A DNA stretch of 64,000 bases, from the NCBI RefSeq assembly GCF_048403405.1, contig NZ_CP183129.1; one strand, given 5' to 3'. Below, in pieces: positions 39,530 through 47,505 of the stretch. The DNA comes from Escherichia coli (GTDB lineage: Bacteria; Pseudomonadota; Gammaproteobacteria; Enterobacterales; Enterobacteriaceae). Numbering within the stretch: position 1 is the stretch's first letter; every line of letters starts with the position of its first letter. The position numbers were made by a program, and so were the translations under genes. A model generated the notes under the pieces. The model did no database searches. It was not told the DNA's origin and worked only from the letters and a program-made list of their open reading frames with translations.

Positions 39530-40186
39530 TTATTTTTTATCATCTAAATTTAAGTCTTCAATTAACCGTCCCACAGCATAAACATCAGTCTTAACTGAAT
39601 ACTCTGCATTATATAAAATCTCGGGAGCCATATATCTTGTACTTCCCATACGGGTACCGATCTCGGTCAATTTAGTGGTATCCCCTTCGGGATTCGTATC
39701 TTTTACCAGACCAAAATCAGACACCTTGTATGTTCCGTCGCTAAATCGCAAAACATTAAAGGGTTTTATATCTCTGTGTAAATAGCCTTTGGCATGGATG
39801 TAAGCTACACCATCTAATACCATTTTCACTATTGAAATTTTTTGATCTGTTGTAAGAAGGTTGTTCGTTATTTCGTGCTCAAGATCACATTCTGCTTTAT
39901 CCATAATGAACCATGGATTCTCAACAAACAAATCGCACAAATAAATAGGAACAATATTGCTATGTACGCAATGTGATTGATACACAACCTCCCTTTTAAA
40001 ACGCCTTCTAAACTGCTCTATTTGCGCCAAAAGCTCTGGTTTTTCGGGTGCTAAAACCTTTCTAGCATAATCCCCGCATTCACCTTTATTGAGGTTGTAA
40101 ACCTTAACGTGTTCAACAAAGCCAAATGCCCCTCTTCCAATCAACTGAATTCGTTTTATAAAGTAATTACCGTGCTGTTCTTCCAT
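39530..40186 (-). CDS. Hanks-type Ser/Thr protein kinase (compact, ~219 aa)
   Basis: G-loop GRGAFGFV, Lys in YARKVL, catalytic loop HRDIKPFN, SDFG, MAPE, TDVYAVG; start set at MEEQ with GGTGAG RBS (track ORF extends to 40261); AT-rich. Confidence 0.8.
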   Translation of the reverse strand: MEEQHGNYFIKRIQLIGRGAFGFVEHVKVYNLNKGECGDYARKVLAPEKPELLAQIEQFRRRFKREVVYQSHCVHSNIVPIYLCDLFVENPWFIMDKAECDLEHEITNNLLTTDQKISIVKMVLDGVAYIHAKGYLHRDIKPFNVLRFSDGTYKVSDFGLVKDTNPEGDTTKLTEIGTRMGSTRYMAPEILYNAEYSVKTDVYAVGRLIEDLNLDDKK

Positions 40187-40260
40187 TAAGCTCACCGACC
40201 TAAATTGTAACAATATCCATATATTACAACTACAGATAAAAAGGTCCACAGAGTTAAGCA

Positions 40261-40290
40261 AAAAACCCGCACATTTGAGCGGGTTTATAC
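40261..40290 (-). terminator. tR'-like intrinsic terminator downstream of the late promoter
   Basis: On the late strand cccgctcaaatgtgcggg followed by TTTTTT. Confidence 0.65.
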
Positions 40291-42770: not shown

Positions 42771-42992
42771 TTATTCCCGAACTACCTTGAAACCGAGTCT
42801 TTCCAAGTATTCAATGAATGCCTCAACAGATAACACTACATGATCATCAGGAATTAACGCTGTGTAGGTAATACCCCCATTCTCAACGCGCACAGCATAG
42901 AGGCCATCTTCACTAAAAATTTCACGTAATTCTTCGATTTTCATCAACAGAATCCTTCCAGATAAATAGCACTCCCCCTGTTCGGGGTCCAT
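42771..42992 (-). CDS. Hypothetical phage protein
   Basis: 73 aa ORF. Confidence 0.4.
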   Translation of the reverse strand: MDPEQGECYLSGRILLMKIEELREIFSEDGLYAVRVENGGITYTALIPDDHVVLSVEAFIEYLERLGFKVVRE

Positions 42993-43074
42993 CCCTCTTC
43001 TCCCTGCGCGCTACTTAAGTATTTTTGATTCTATTCTGGCACCGTCCAAAACTTCAAACACGTTGAAAATAAAA

Positions 43075-43096
43075 ACAAAAAACCCGCCGAAGCGGG
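43075..43096 (-). terminator. Intrinsic terminator after the XRE-peptidase gene
   Basis: Late strand cccgcttcggcggg followed by TTTTTTGTTTTT; same hairpin as at 44912-44936. Confidence 0.7.
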
Positions 43097-43101
43097 TATA
43101 C

Positions 43102-44208
43102 TCAAACAATCTGGAAAATATTTCTTGGATTTGTAATAGGTCTGTTGATGGAGAACAACTCACGAATTAAATCTTGGCTCAAGCCAGTTTTCATAAGAAT
43201 TCTTAGCCAGGTTGCATCATCCAGCATTTCAATCGCCTCGGCCAGCATGCCGGGTTCTTCAGGGCGCAAAAGTTCATCACCAGGTTCAACTCTCGTATAC
43301 CCTCTGGAATTAAGATGCATATAGCCAGTTCTTGCCTGTTCCTGGGTCAATAAGCCTAATGCGCTGGCTCGATAAATACACATTTTAAGGCTGATTTTCC
43401 ATCTAAGTTTAAATTCAACCAGAGCATTCCAGTCGAATTGCTTACCTCGTATTCGTGGAAATTCTTTAATGAAAGATAACCTGGGAACTAATAAGGCGCT
43501 CGAAAAGTGATCGGCTTGTGATTCCGTAAGTTTATCACCTGTCGTTATGCCCTCATGCATTACTAAATGCCCTAATTCATGACCTAAATCAGAGCGAAAT
43601 CTACATATGCTTTTTTTAACATTGTTCCTGATGATAACAGGCCTGTTATTGTGAACAGTAAAAGCATCAACACGATCATCGACTCCCGTAACATGCGCAA
43701 CGATTACCCCTAAACTCTCCGCCAATTTAACCATTGATGATATAGGGCCAAGACCTAAATTCCAGGCACGGCGACAATCTTCTGCCACTCGCTCAATATC
43801 ATTCGGAGTAAGTAATTCAGCCCCTGGGTGCTCCGGTATGTTAACGTCAGGAAATTCGATTTCACCTTCAACAGCAGAAATTATAATATTAAGAATCTCA
43901 GCCCTGGCCAATACACTATTAGTCAGCGTTTGAGTCCTGGACTTCTTACTCCGAAAATGGCAGACATCACTTTCCAGAGCGTATTTTCGTTCAGTAAAAA
44001 GAAAACTGGACTTAATCATAAGCGCTGAAGATATTAACTCAAGACATTGCTCCGATGGCCTGCACCCCTTCTCCAGTTTGCTAACGAATTGCTTTGTCTT
44101 GCCAATTTTTTCGGCTAACTCTTCACAAGAAAGCCCAACAGCCATTCTCGCTAGTTTGAGCTTATCACCCCGATACTCAGTGAAGTTATTCACCTGATGT
44201 TCCATCAC
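43102..44208 (-). CDS. XRE-family HTH regulator fused to ImmA/IrrE-type (COG2856) zinc metallopeptidase
   Basis: 368 aa; N-terminal HTH (LKLARMAVGLSCEELAEKIGKTKQFVSKLEKG), C-terminal HEXXH (HELGHLVMH); AT-rich. Confidence 0.75.
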   Translation of the reverse strand: MMEHQVNNFTEYRGDKLKLARMAVGLSCEELAEKIGKTKQFVSKLEKGCRPSEQCLELISSALMIKSSFLFTERKYALESDVCHFRSKKSRTQTLTNSVLARAEILNIIISAVEGEIEFPDVNIPEHPGAELLTPNDIERVAEDCRRAWNLGLGPISSMVKLAESLGVIVAHVTGVDDRVDAFTVHNNRPVIIRNNVKKSICRFRSDLGHELGHLVMHEGITTGDKLTESQADHFSSALLVPRLSFIKEFPRIRGKQFDWNALVEFKLRWKISLKMCIYRASALGLLTQEQARTGYMHLNSRGYTRVEPGDELLRPEEPGMLAEAIEMLDDATWLRILMKTGLSQDLIRELFSINRPITNPRNIFQIV

Positions 44209-44836
44209 TGCTCACATCCAAATCTTTATCCTTCGTACGCCGACGAAGAGGCACCTTATTAATCTCCGCTTCGTCAGGGAGTGTGTTATAATCAAGAGGC
44301 ATAAGCGGCATCGATGCTGTAGATTGATGAGAAACTATACTAATCTGAGCACCATAAGTATTAAATCCAACAAGAGCTACCTCCCAACGAGGCAGTGTGG
44401 ACTCTAATTCACCATCGCCCTCTTCGGATAAAAAAGGCTCAGCTATGACTCGCCATGTAATATCTTGCTCAGCCTCAACATCACCAAACAATGAGAGCTG
44501 CTCATACTCTACTTTATTTCGACGCAGACGATGTTTCTTTTTGGGGTTATTAATGCAATCTTTGGTAAATTGTAGCGGAACTTTATTTAAAGCAACTACA
44601 TAGTCCAACCCCTTGGAAATCATCTCAAGGCCAGGAATTGCATCTTCATTTTGAATAAGATGATTTCTGACCCAATCATAAGCCCTTACACCTTCAGACC
44701 AGTTGCTGTCTAATGCGTGCTTATGATAGTACAGCTGCTCAAGTACGTTAGCGATCTCCGCCAACAAGTGGCGAACATAGTTTTCAGCAAGATAAGGTTG
44801 AAATTCCCAACAAGGAGCTAACTGATTTTCATTCAT
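44186..44836 (-). CDS. Uncharacterized protein (216 aa), upstream partner of the XRE-peptidase gene
   Basis: ORF overlaps the downstream gene by 23 nt; TTGACA -35 element upstream; no recognisable motif. Confidence 0.55.
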   Translation of the reverse strand: MNENQLAPCWEFQPYLAENYVRHLLAEIANVLEQLYYHKHALDSNWSEGVRAYDWVRNHLIQNEDAIPGLEMISKGLDYVVALNKVPLQFTKDCINNPKKKHRLRRNKVEYEQLSLFGDVEAEQDITWRVIAEPFLSEEGDGELESTLPRWEVALVGFNTYGAQISIVSHQSTASMPLMPLDYNTLPDEAEINKVPLRRRTKDKDLDVSSDGTSGE

Positions 44837-44911
44837 TTCAAGTTTCGCTTTTTTTAGAATTCGTAAACCACATATTTTCGCATTTTTCTATTTTTGTCAA
44901 CCAGACTAATG

Positions 44912-44936
44912 CAAAAACCCGCCGAAGCGGGTTAAG
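44912..44936 (-). terminator. Intrinsic terminator after hok
   Basis: cccgcttcggcggg hairpin followed by T-run on the late strand. Confidence 0.7.
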
Positions 44937-45001
44937 TGCGGGTGCGTTGAGGATGCCTGGCACATCAGAGGTGGCGGGAGATTACTCCCCCGCCGGGTCT
45001 C

Positions 45002-45157
45002 TTACTCCTCAGGTTCGTAAGCTGTGAAGACAGCGACCTCCGTCTGGCCGGTTCGGATTCGTACCTCGCAGAGGTCTTTCCTCGTTACCAGTGCCGTCAC
45101 AATGACGGTTAAACAGATGACGATCAGGGCGATTAACATCGCCTTTTGCTGCTTCAT
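45002..45157 (-). CDS. hokD: Hok/Gef-family type I toxin (HokD/RelF-like, 51 aa)
   Basis: MKQQKAMLIALIVICLTVIVTALVTRKDLCEVRIRTGQTEVAVFTAYEPEE matches HokD; track ORF has an in-frame upstream extension. Confidence 0.85.
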   Translation of the reverse strand: MKQQKAMLIALIVICLTVIVTALVTRKDLCEVRIRTGQTEVAVFTAYEPEE

Positions 45158-45394
45158 AGCCTGCTTCCCCTTGCCTTTCGGCACGTAAGAGGCTAACCTA
45201 CATTTGTGAGACATAGATTGGGCCTCAGATTAATGTTAAGCGTCTTGCAGGACGCGAAATGTTAACTGGGGCTTTTCTCTATCTGCCTTTCAGTGTTCAT
45301 GCCTGAGACAGATAGCCTCAAGCACCCGCAGCCATTCTACTTAACTCACGTCACCTCGCCAATATGAAATCAATCAGAAAGGTGATCCATAAAA

Positions 45395-46081
45395 TCACTC
45401 CTTCTCTTCTTTTCCGTAGTGGAGTTGGCCAATTTTGATAAGAGGGCGTCCCTGAGATTTGCGGTGTAGATTGGTATCGCGCAGAGAATACACACAGCCA
45501 CAATATTCCTGCTGATAGAATTTTTCGCGCTTGCTGATTTCAATCATACGGGACGAGCCGCCCTGCTTGCGCCAGTTATAATCCCAGTACACCATACCCG
45601 GATAATGCGCAACAGCTCGCCGCCCACACTCGTTAACCTGCTGCATATTTTTCCAGCGTGAAATGCCCAGTGAACTGCTGATCACACTGAAACCATTTTC
45701 AGCAGCGTACAACGCTGTCCGCTCAAAACGCATGTCAAAACACATGGTACAACGGATCCCCCTCTCAGGCTCCCATTCCATTCCTTTGGCACGTTCAAAC
45801 CAGTTGTCGGTGTCGTAATCAGCATCGATAAACGGCACGCCGTGTTGTTCAGCAAAGCGAATATTTTCATCCTTACGAATTAAATACTCTTTCTGAGGAT
45901 GAATGTTCGGGTTGTAGAAAAAGATGGTGTAGTCGATTCCCGAGGCCTGAAGCGCCTCCATCACTTCACCGGAACATGGAGCACAGCAAGAGTGCAGTAG
46001 TAGTTTGTTTGCCCCGTTTGGGAGCTCCAATTTAGGCCGTTTGAAATCAGCAATAGTCATAAATATTTTTATTGGGGTCAT
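45395..46081 (-). CDS. QueH-like (DUF208) putative epoxyqueuosine reductase
   Basis: Conserved Cys motifs [12 protein letters not shown] and YCGCVYS; start ambiguous (M at 46081 or 46060); family call from memory. Confidence 0.55.
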
Positions 46082-46135
46082 GAAAATAGCACAGAGTGTA
46101 GCATCAGAGTGTACTGACCCCAAAAAGTTGGACAG

Positions 46136-46987
46136 TTAAACACGAGGCATATAGGTCTGATTCCGATATTCAATTGGAGTCAGACCTTTTAATTTCAGGC
46201 TAATTCTTCTGCTGTTGTAGTATTCAATATATTCCGTAACAGCATCCTTCAGTTCGCTTATATTACTGAACTCATCAAGATAAAAACACTCCGACTTTAA
46301 GGTTCCAAAGAAACACTCCACCACAGCATTATCCAGACAATTGCCTTTTCTGGACATGCTTTGTTTAATACCATGTTCTTTAAGGATATTTTGATATCTT
46401 CTCATACGATACTGCCATCCCTGGTCAGAGTGCAGAACAGGATGCTCGTGAGGATTAAGCTTTTTGAATGCCTGATCGAGCATATTCTCAACCATGTTCA
46501 TCACTGGTCTTTCCGAAAGGCTGTAAGAAATAACTTCGTTGTTGAAGAGATCTATTACTGGAGACAAATACAGCTTGCGCCCATTGACTGCAAATTCAGT
46601 AACATCGGTAACCCACTTCTCGTTTGGCCGCGTAGCCTTGAAATCTCTTTGGAGAACATTAGGGGCGGTTTGCCCTACCTCTCCTCTGTAAGAGCGGTAT
46701 CGCTTGACCTTAATCGCTGCTTTAAGTGAGAGGGTTCCCATCAGGCGCTGAACAGCTTTATGGTTAATCTGTTTCCCTTCTCGATGAAGAGACAGCGTTA
46801 CCCTACGGTATCCGTATCGGCCTCTATTCTCGTGATAAATCTCACTAATACGCTTTTTAACGTCCGCATACTTGTCAGGCTTGCTGAGAGCCTTTAGATG
46901 ATAATAAAACGTACTGCGCGGTATCTCCGCAGCCCTGAGAAGCTCATCAAGAGGATAAAACTGCCTTAGCTCGTTGAGTACTTTCAC
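46136..46987 (-). CDS. insK: IS150 transposase OrfB (DDE domain)
   Basis: 283 aa; ...[48 protein letters not shown]... Confidence 0.9.
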
Positions 46988-47505
46988 TTTTTCGTGGGAT
47001 GAGCTAAGGCTTTCAGCTTTTTTAGATACATAAGCCGCGTTTCAAGAAATCGAACTTGCCTTTCAAGATCCTCAATGCGTCGGTCTTTTGACAGCTCCAA
47101 TGCTGATGCCGCTTTTTCTGGATCAACTGATATTGCAATGTTTCTTTTGGTGCCAATCTTGAGCGCGCGTAAACCAGCTTCTCCGCGCTCTTCATAGACC
47201 TTCAGCCACCTGGCTACAGAACCACTACCAGCAAGCATAAAGTGAGCAGCAGCCTGATTAAGGGACATGTGCTGCTCGATCACAGCTTTCACGACCTTAA
47301 TACGCAACTCTGGATCAGCACTAACGCCTTTAGGTTTGGGAATTAAACCTTTTTCTCCATGTTTTTCATAGAGGGCAACCCATGTCCTGACCTGGGTTCG
47401 GGGGACACCAAAACGTGCCGAGATGATCCTGTAACCATCATCAGTTGTGAAGTAGTGATTCACGACTTCAAGGCGCTTTTCAAAAGGGTATTTTGGCTTT
47501 GACAT
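46984..47505 (-). CDS. insJ: IS150 transposase OrfA (HTH)
   Basis: 173 aa MSKPKYPFEKRLEVVNHYFTTDDGYRIISARFGVPRTQVRTWVALYEKHG...; 4 nt overlap with orfB. Confidence 0.9.
   Translation of the reverse strand: MSKPKYPFEKRLEVVNHYFTTDDGYRIISARFGVPRTQVRTWVALYEKHGEKGLIPKPKGVSADPELRIKVVKAVIEQHMSLNQAAAHFMLAGSGSVARWLKVYEERGEAGLRALKIGTKRNIAISVDPEKAASALELSKDRRIEDLERQVRFLETRLMYLKKLKALAHPTKK

Follow-up and report, generated by a model that had tools for sequence, protein, structure and literature searches.

A pair of overlapping genes on the minus strand of Escherichia coli contig NZ_CP183129.1 (assembly GCF_048403405.1), within the stretch of 64,000 nucleotides that was analysed here (hereafter the window), is in all likelihood a RosmerTA-type toxin-antitoxin (TA) or abortive-infection cassette, carried as a moron by a lambdoid prophage. 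The first gene, rmrT (44186-44836, minus strand), encodes the candidate toxin, a protein of 216 aa (WP_001004956.1) that is labelled 'hypothetical protein' in RefSeq. The second gene, rmrA (43102-44205, minus strand), encodes the antitoxin and regulator, a protein of 367 aa from its ATG start (WP_000401168.1) in which an XRE helix-turn-helix (HTH) domain is fused to an M78 (ImmA/IrrE) Zn-peptidase. An earlier reading of this DNA from the letters alone (the sequence-only reading) had proposed the upstream gene as a candidate toxin or defence effector with an XRE-COG2856 antitoxin or regulator, which agrees with the RosmerTA matches of both proteins in PADLOC, with their pairing in all distant relatives examined, and with related modules that are toxic, neutralised or defensive. 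Its description of the regulator as 'damage-responsive' fared worse, as nothing in the analysis supports a DNA-damage response, and the novelty that it implied had to be given up: the module is an already catalogued kind of system that can be called by standard defence-annotation tools, and gene 1 was already matched by RmrT and PHROG profiles. As to how the toxin acts, I tentatively suggest that the window RmrT subfamily, and possibly several other RmrT families, may be poisons of the β sliding clamp that place a QLSLF-type motif in the cleft of DnaN.

The two genes and their family

The two-gene architecture proposed from the letters, a 216-aa protein followed by an XRE-HTH/M78 fusion, was recovered as two minus-strand open reading frames (ORFs) with the expected Pfam domains. 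In RmrA, the HTH_3 domain lies at 44020-44160 (minus strand; Pfam E 2e-6; residues 17-63, counted from the GTG start discussed below) and the Peptidase_M78 domain at 43363-43680 (minus strand; Pfam E 1.2e-10; residues 177-282). The peptidase motif is intact, with HELGH at 43567-43581 followed by ESQADHFSSALLVP, and HELGH was invariant in all 25 IMG/VR loci checked. The HTH showed sequence matches in the PDB to SinR and the 434 repressor. RmrA as a whole matched the PADLOC RmrA model PDLC03943 (E 6e-105) as well as 13 further RmrA models, and falls into the PHROGs family phrog_2439 (transcriptional regulator). A RosmerTA antitoxin is recognised by an N-terminal XRE HTH fused to an HExxH Zn-peptidase, and this is the build of gene 2. 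Partial PADLOC matches were also obtained to capP (residues 161-284) and capH (residues 14-73), and the combination of an XRE HTH repressor with an M78 peptidase is the logic of ImmR/ImmA from ICEBs1 and of CapH/CapP from CBASS. However, a pair of the ImmR/ImmA type consists of a separate repressor and anti-repressor protease, whereas the domains of RmrA are fused in one polypeptide, and its partner is a toxin rather than an integrase or a CBASS operon.

RmrT matched PADLOC model PDLC03929 (E 4.6e-25; model positions 5-195 of 198), which places it in a catalogued toxin family, and the PHROGs family phrog_5786 of unknown function (E 8e-85). It had no match in Pfam, whether searched as a single sequence or with 61 members, none in NCBIfam and none among PDB profiles, so that the earlier remark that gene 1 has no recognisable motif is correct for Pfam and NCBIfam and wrong for PADLOC and PHROGs. 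Searching 1.84 billion representative proteins with a profile returned only 69 relatives at E ≤ 1e-3, nearly all of 190-225 aa, which came from Enterobacterales, Aeromonas, Vibrio, Pseudomonas and metagenomes. The family set used hereafter consists of 61 representatives, no pair of which is more than 50% identical. All distant relatives that were examined matched the same PADLOC model PDLC03929, with Vibrio proteins scoring highest. Remote homology and structure prediction, which the sequence-only reading had named as ways to approach the 216-aa protein, thus yielded a family assignment through PADLOC and a globular α/β model from AlphaFold2 (AF2).

The layout is that of RosmerTA: adjacent co-oriented genes with the toxin first, one promoter and one terminator, and it was the same in 25 related loci, all of which have overlapping genes. 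The overlap between the two genes was confirmed, and its length is more likely 20 nt (ATG start at 44205) than the 23 nt given earlier (alternative GTG start at 44208, resulting in a protein of 368 aa), because RefSeq uses the ATG for WP_000401168.1 in E. coli 042 and ML35, where the protein is labelled 'helix-turn-helix domain-containing protein', and because most related loci lack an upstream GTG (21 of the 25 checked, where the overlap is 14-35 nt from the ATG-type start). The operon is indeed AT-rich, with a GC content of 0.41-0.44 inside the module compared with 0.49-0.56 in the flanks. Judged by dN/dS, both genes are under purifying selection (0.06-0.19 for rmrT and 0.02-0.04 for rmrA). 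A literature search by accession found no paper naming WP_001004956 or WP_000401168.

RosmerTA was described as a toxin of unknown function with a Zn-peptidase antitoxin, the verified anti-phage system being that of E. coli OLC-716; transformation with a ΔrmrA construct was not possible (Millman et al., 2022; bioRxiv 10.1101/2022.05.11.491447). The window module shares with it the toxin-first two-gene operon, the XRE HTH + M78 antitoxin, the carriage on a mobile element and the PADLOC Rosmer matches. A toxin upstream of an HTH + Zn-peptidase antitoxin is also found in Vmi480/Vmi470 of Vibrio mimicus MGIVmi1, where a 198-aa toxin that is lethal in E. coli is neutralised in cis by a 362-aa antitoxin encoded after a 5-bp gap (PMC4671572). 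Two marine metagenome relatives of the window module (L070/L071) agree exactly with these published figures in toxin length, gap and antitoxin length, and pairs of the L070 type are ~28% (toxin) and ~45% (antitoxin) identical to the window proteins. Because of these look-alikes, and because Vibrio proteins top PDLC03929, Vmi480 is probably a member of the same RmrT subfamily, as judged through the look-alike loci.

Some points weigh against calling the module RosmerTA in the full sense of the verified system. The OLC-716 RmrT belongs to another model (PDLC03935) and has no detectable similarity to the window RmrT, and its RmrA is 29% identical; the window RmrT therefore sits in a catalogued subfamily that is distinct from the verified one. 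In addition, the defence function, its trigger, the autorepression and any role of the peptidase are what I infer from the family. The pair WP_001179380.1/WP_000481765.1 of E. coli E101, discussed below, was not among the accessions listed for the RmrA-homologue cluster. Among the closest known systems is also PD-λ-2 (Vassallo et al., 2022; PMC9519451), which differs in having three components, a HigB-like first gene, a P4-type third gene and an Xre-peptidase that is itself the toxic part.

A candidate β-clamp-binding motif in RmrT

The best-conserved segment of RmrT is E110-x-x-Q113-L-S-L116-F117, in which E110 was present in 56, Q113 in 49 and L116 in 43 of the 61 representatives. Residues 113-117 read QLSLF (codons at 44486-44500, minus strand), which is identical to the consensus bacterial β-clamp-binding motif, QL[S/D]LF or more generally QxxLF (PMC12309361). 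For QLSLF itself the affinity to E. coli DnaN is sub-µM, and binding is also seen with hexapeptides such as QLSLPL. Clamp-motif-like peptides, defined as Qxx[LMI]F or Q[LMFIV]x[LMI]x[LF], occurred at the aligned site in 40 of the 61 representatives and only three times elsewhere in 11,370 residues, compared with a mean of 5.2 of 61 sequences that had such a peptide anywhere in the shuffled control. Many of the members that do not fit carry near-variants (QLSLL, QMSLL or QASFLF). With a QL[S/D]LF/QxxLF peptide that is conserved among its homologues, RmrT has the mark by which a protein is assigned to the clamp-binding class.

A precedent comes from S. pneumoniae RipAB (Spr1630/Spr1629), a TA pair of the Rosmer family, in which RipA interacts with DnaN (PMC12795458). 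Suppressors of RipA map to the hydrophobic pocket of DnaN that receives clamp-binding motifs, and neutralisation by RipB needs ClpX (PMC12795458). RipAB resembles the window module in its XRE + ImmA-like antitoxin, and the window RmrT carries the consensus ligand (QLSLF) of the pocket that RipA targets. In E. coli E101, furthermore, the essentiality of clpP is due to a Rosmer-like prophage TA, and co-essentiality of rmrA and clpX is on record for three Pectobacteriaceae. A comparable dependence is described for Caulobacter, where SocB blocks the cleft of the β clamp and is removed by SocA-ClpXP, so that ClpXP is essential (Aakre et al., 2013, as related in PMC5422525 and PMC12795458). On these accounts, and if the clamp hypothesis holds, the type VI TA system SocAB would be alike in its clamp-cleft-blocking toxin, in its control by ClpXP and in the ClpXP essentiality seen with Rosmer-type modules. 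It differs in that no sequence relationship is known, in that SocA is a small proteolytic adaptor rather than an HTH-metallopeptidase, and in being chromosomal rather than prophage-borne.

Since QLSLF lies in the best-conserved segment, RipA acts at the DnaN pocket, and ClpX or ClpP becomes essential in the presence of such modules, poisoning of the β clamp through QLSLF is the effector mechanism that I prefer, with a confidence that stops somewhat short of an even chance. By analogy with the family and the literature, RmrA would bind the two repeats at the module promoter (described below) and repress its own operon, and would hold RmrT inactive, probably aided by ClpXP. rmrA is translationally coupled to rmrT. 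Phage infection would free RmrT, leading to arrest or death of the cell before the phage cycle is completed. The soluble α/β RmrT would then dock QLSLF into the hydrophobic cleft of DnaN, and this docking would block replisome function in the host as well as for phages that rely on its replisome, by analogy with RipA and SocB.

Peptides of this kind were also found in other RmrT models, each with a Pro-basic stretch before it and acidic residues after it: QLKLDL, or NLDLF in distant members, in PDLC03935 (OLC-716 family), QLSLF in PDLC03938 (Zymomonas plasmid), QYNLF and EISLF in PDLC03933/03940 (Enterococcus and Lacticaseibacillus phages), and QLSFF in PDLC03930 (phiCD27). In the verified OLC-716 RmrT, QLKLDL occupies residues 144-149, and among its relatives 14 have QLxL/FxL/F, whereas 7 distant members have NLDLF or NYDMF. 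An extension of the clamp motif beyond the window RmrT family is suggestive only. Aligning the window RmrT family with the OLC-716 RmrT family and with the Zymomonas and Enterococcus toxins in hhalign gave no significant result (probabilities 0.5-1.9%). Equating the toxins with QYNLF or EISLF with RipA was considered and rejected, as RmrA from the Enterococcus and Lacticaseibacillus phages scores below the spr1629 cut-off (222 vs 335 bits).

Several observations count against a clamp mechanism. About a third of the family (21 of the 61 representatives) lies outside even the loose motif, and outside the window family only 2 of 11 RmrA-linked toxins fit the motif strictly, compared with ~8% expected by chance. 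In the AF2 monomer, QLSLF is predicted at the end of a short helix (residues 108-115) inside the domain rather than on a free tail, with a predicted local distance difference test score (pLDDT) of ~74 for residues 111-120, and because of this position at a helix end inside the domain the conservation of QLSLF could be structural. The likeness to RipAB also has its limits: RmrA reached 155.9 bits against the cut-off of 335 for the spr1629/RipB equivalog (NCBIfam NF052239), i.e. it is related without being an equivalog, and a search of PMC12795458 found no clamp-binding motif named in RipA.

The best of the alternatives, although an unlikely one, is that RmrT is a divergent PD-(D/E)xK nuclease that is checked by RmrA and degrades host or phage DNA, which would be compatible with recruitment to the clamp without requiring it. 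The AF2 model built from the 61-sequence alignment (pLDDT 85.5, predicted template modelling score 0.76) shows a globular α/β domain that comprises a mixed sheet and two long helices and, from residue 175 or so onwards, gives way to an acidic tail without order; an earlier model from a 13-sequence alignment (pLDDT 62.8) was discarded as too poor. The predicted fold may bear a weak resemblance to restriction endonucleases, without a conserved catalytic motif. A nuclease would be consistent with a conserved basic stretch (P98-K-K-K-H-R-L-R-R) and with the conserved acidic residues D43, E110 and E/D133. The catalytic residues themselves are another matter: D78 was present in 23 of the 61 representatives, and the strand in the β3 position (residues 86-92) has R/Q/K89 and K/R92 and no conserved acidic residue. 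As the canonical D…(D/E)xK positions are not conserved, nuclease activity of RmrT is a lead only. There was no sequence-level match to any nuclease family in Pfam or the PDB, and a Foldseek search of the model against AFDB50 returned matches only to uncharacterised family members.

Regulatory region, insertion site and distribution

The TTGACA -35 element reported by the sequence-only reading, a perfect one, was found at 44900-44895, as part of a module promoter (44872-44900, minus strand) with a 17-nt spacer and a weak -10 (AAATAT, 44877-44872), and the ~70 nt surrounding it are conserved across loci. A consensus promoter scan did not list this promoter because its -10 is weak. Two 27-nt operator-like repeats (GGTTKAC-N14-GCGAAA), spaced 33 bp start-to-start, lie in this region: the first (GGTTGAC-N14-GCGAAA; 44876-44902, minus strand) overlaps the -35 and the spacer, and the second (GGTTTAC-N14-GCGAAA; 44843-44869, minus strand) is located between the -10 and the start of rmrT. 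This arrangement fits two phased operators for an HTH protein that would cover the promoter. The motif had only these two matches in the window, in a test that is partly circular as the pattern was derived from both sites. L060-L062, the loci that diverge most, have their second repeat upstream of the -35 copy instead of downstream, again 33 bp start-to-start.

Among loci with toxins of 50-94% identity to that of the window, conservation extends over ~70 nt, from TGGTTGACA as far as the ATG; further upstream, the different contexts have unrelated sequences. The conserved region holds a block, GTTGAC...CGAA..T.T, that is invariant across divergent loci, and one locus (L055) is ~87% identical to the window over the ~70-nt stretch, as counted from the alignment, with the synonymous sites of the adjacent genes saturated (pS 0.83). 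On the evidence of these alignments, the 70-nt promoter region with its two phased repeats is under strong constraint. The RNA of the 5' leader was not unusually structured (z-score 0.75).

The module had been described as a self-contained operon inserted next to hok, and this was borne out by an empty site in phage PhiR42_1 and by a promoter and terminator of its own that are kept in different contexts. In a blastn comparison with the PhiR42_1 locus (L001), positions 42877-43097 of the window aligned to 2879-3096 of L001, and 44912-45171 to 3076-3335. The two L001 ranges overlap by ~20 nt, which correspond to the hokD terminator hairpin, present in a single copy at the empty site. With its flanks contiguous around that single hairpin in PhiR42_1, the module is therefore a ~1.8-kb insertion (43098-44912) relative to the rem-hokD intergenic region; the flanks are contiguous within about 164 bp in phages PhiR42_1, HannyBb and mEp460_ev081.

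In the window, the cassette is bounded by 20-nt exact direct repeats (43078-43097 = 44913-44932). They are shared by the two copies of one hairpin, which had been noticed earlier on both sides of the operon. One copy is the intrinsic module terminator (43082-43097, minus strand), which consists of ACCCGCTTCGGCGGGT and a T-run and starts 4 nt after the rmrA stop, and the other is the upstream terminator of hokD (44916-44933, minus strand), which shields the module from transcription coming out of hok. In most variants, a terminator of the form ACCCGC-loop-GCGGGT follows the rmrA stop within 4-20 nt. The hok terminator was duplicated upon insertion of the module, and the identity of the two copies probably reflects recombination between similar hairpins.

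At least 80% of the cassette was present in 236 of 5,426 complete E. coli genomes, most of them at ≥99% identity, and the carriers include strains 042, ABU 83972, VR50 and ML35. IMG/VR contained 53 prophage contigs with relatives of the module, and a megablast of the phage collection found the cassette in no record. In every relative with an examined context, a gene of 362-376 aa encoding HTH+M78 directly follows the toxin gene, and this pairing is kept down to ~20% toxin identity (relatives at 19-30%); the comparative genomics of regulator-linked genes that had been put forward as a check thus found gene 1 conserved with the HTH+M78 gene throughout. RmrA evolves more slowly than RmrT, as seen in the pairwise identities to the window pair, which are 41% for the toxin and 58% for the antitoxin in a second E. 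coli allele (L063), and 27-30% and 45-46%, respectively, in more distant pairs (L066, L068 and L070). In E. coli FDAARGOS_1249 (L073; NZ_CP069459.1, 1487-3046), an IS5 in the 5' part of rmrT has left a 140-aa remnant next to an intact rmrA, and a TA pair is expected to decay in this direction, with the toxin broken and the antitoxin intact.

The second E. coli allele (L063-L065; GCA_949110755.1 and CP054662.1; locus 2864-4622) flanks hok on its opposite side, in other lambdoid prophages, and CP054662.1 carries it twice. Phage Tritos (L075; OV696610.1, 836-2592) has a PDLC03933-like RmrT of 204 aa, together with an ImmA/IrrE-HTH RmrA, between hokD and a DUF968 gene, the same site as in the window. 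With different alleles at these positions, the sites next to hok serve as points where RosmerTA alleles are exchanged. Relatives of the module also occur outside prophages, at loci flanked by insertion sequences (IS) in P. aeruginosa and in marine defence islands. In the latter, the module lies directly downstream of a Drt1a reverse-transcriptase defence gene (L070/L071; PADLOC 1352 bits) or of a type I restriction-modification system (L068/L069), and L068 also has a Rep3 replication gene, which suggests a plasmid.

These surroundings bear on whether the module defends against phages at all. It could be a plain addiction module, involved in post-segregational killing or prophage stabilisation and devoid of an anti-phage role, like the neighbouring hok/sok, and I consider this quite improbable. 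Such a role would suit its position beside a further addiction locus. For Vmi480/470, a pair of the same architecture, the TA function alone was characterised, and the E101 and RipAB modules were found via essentiality and competence phenotypes and not via defence. On the other hand, the RosmerTA systems of E. coli and of Gordonia phage Kita protect against phages, subfamily relatives stand beside Drt1a and type I restriction-modification genes, and the presence of different RosmerTA alleles at the same hok-flanking lambdoid sites is typical of a defence hotspot. Addiction and defence are, moreover, not mutually exclusive.

It is very unlikely that RmrA is an ImmR/ImmA-like fused repressor-antirepressor of prophage genes or prophage induction, and that gene 1 is an ordinary phage early protein. 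The M78 and XRE HTH domains are those of ImmA/ImmR and CapP/CapH, and the module belongs to the early-right (nin) region and has the orientation of P and Q. However, the cassette is missing from otherwise similar phages, it has terminators on both sides and its own promoter, it is also found outside prophages (in the P. aeruginosa and marine loci), its operator-like motif occurs only at its own promoter within the 64-kb window, and gene 1 always travels with gene 2. Weakest of all, and rejected on hydropathy, is a membrane-depolarising toxin like RmrT-D5 of phage Kita, a characterised RosmerTA toxin that depolarises and permeabilises the membrane: the window RmrT has no hydrophobic or transmembrane segment (maximum KD19 0.84, GRAVY -0.54, pI 4.9) and by its composition is acidic, hydrophilic and soluble, its AF2 model is a globular α/β domain ending in a disordered acidic tail, and it belongs to a different PADLOC RmrT model.

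The neighbourhood of the module is a lambdoid early-right region with the order P, DUF1627, DUF977, QueH, hokD/sok, rmrT, rmrA, rem remnant, DUF968, RusA and Q. hokD (45002-45214, minus strand) is directly upstream of the module, and the sok antisense RNA (45152-45327; Rfam RF01794, 120.5 bits) was the only hit in an Rfam scan of the 4 kb around it. Downstream of the module, positions 42771-42992 (minus strand) hold a 73-aa Rem-like ORF, where RefSeq has a short pseudogene fragment in 042 and ML35. The QueH gene (epoxyqueuosine reductase; 45395-46123, minus strand; WP_000150294.1 in the ML35 annotation) also lies in this early-right region. Between the QueH and DUF977 genes there is an IS3-family element (46136-47505, minus strand; orfA 46984-47505 and orfB 46136-46987), which we take to be IS150-like and which is missing from the otherwise identical ML35 prophage (88% query coverage in two pieces). 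Further away, downstream of Q, 39530-40261 and the region just upstream of it (minus strand) encode a eukaryote-like Ser/Thr kinase followed by a PP2C phosphatase, a pair that may be another accessory or exclusion module of the prophage.

Implications for RosmerTA and lambdoid prophages

In 236 complete E. coli genomes, two genes labelled 'hypothetical' and 'helix-turn-helix' gain a named defence/TA identity from this analysis, and the intergenic sites on either side of hok in lambdoid prophages stand out as places of exchange between different RosmerTA alleles. As a discovery the module itself is ordinary, and the remaining interest lies in the effector mechanism of RmrT and in a clamp-binding hypothesis that is specific and cheaply testable. 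This hypothesis would link the interaction of RipA with DnaN, the ClpXP essentiality in E. coli E101 and Pectobacteriaceae, and SocAB. If it is true, RosmerTA would be a prophage-borne functional analogue of SocAB, and clamp poisoning would explain why Rosmer-type modules make ClpX or ClpP essential. Protection would then be achieved by shutting down the replisome-dependent replication of competing phages, and poisoning of the replication clamp would be a widespread anti-phage effector strategy.

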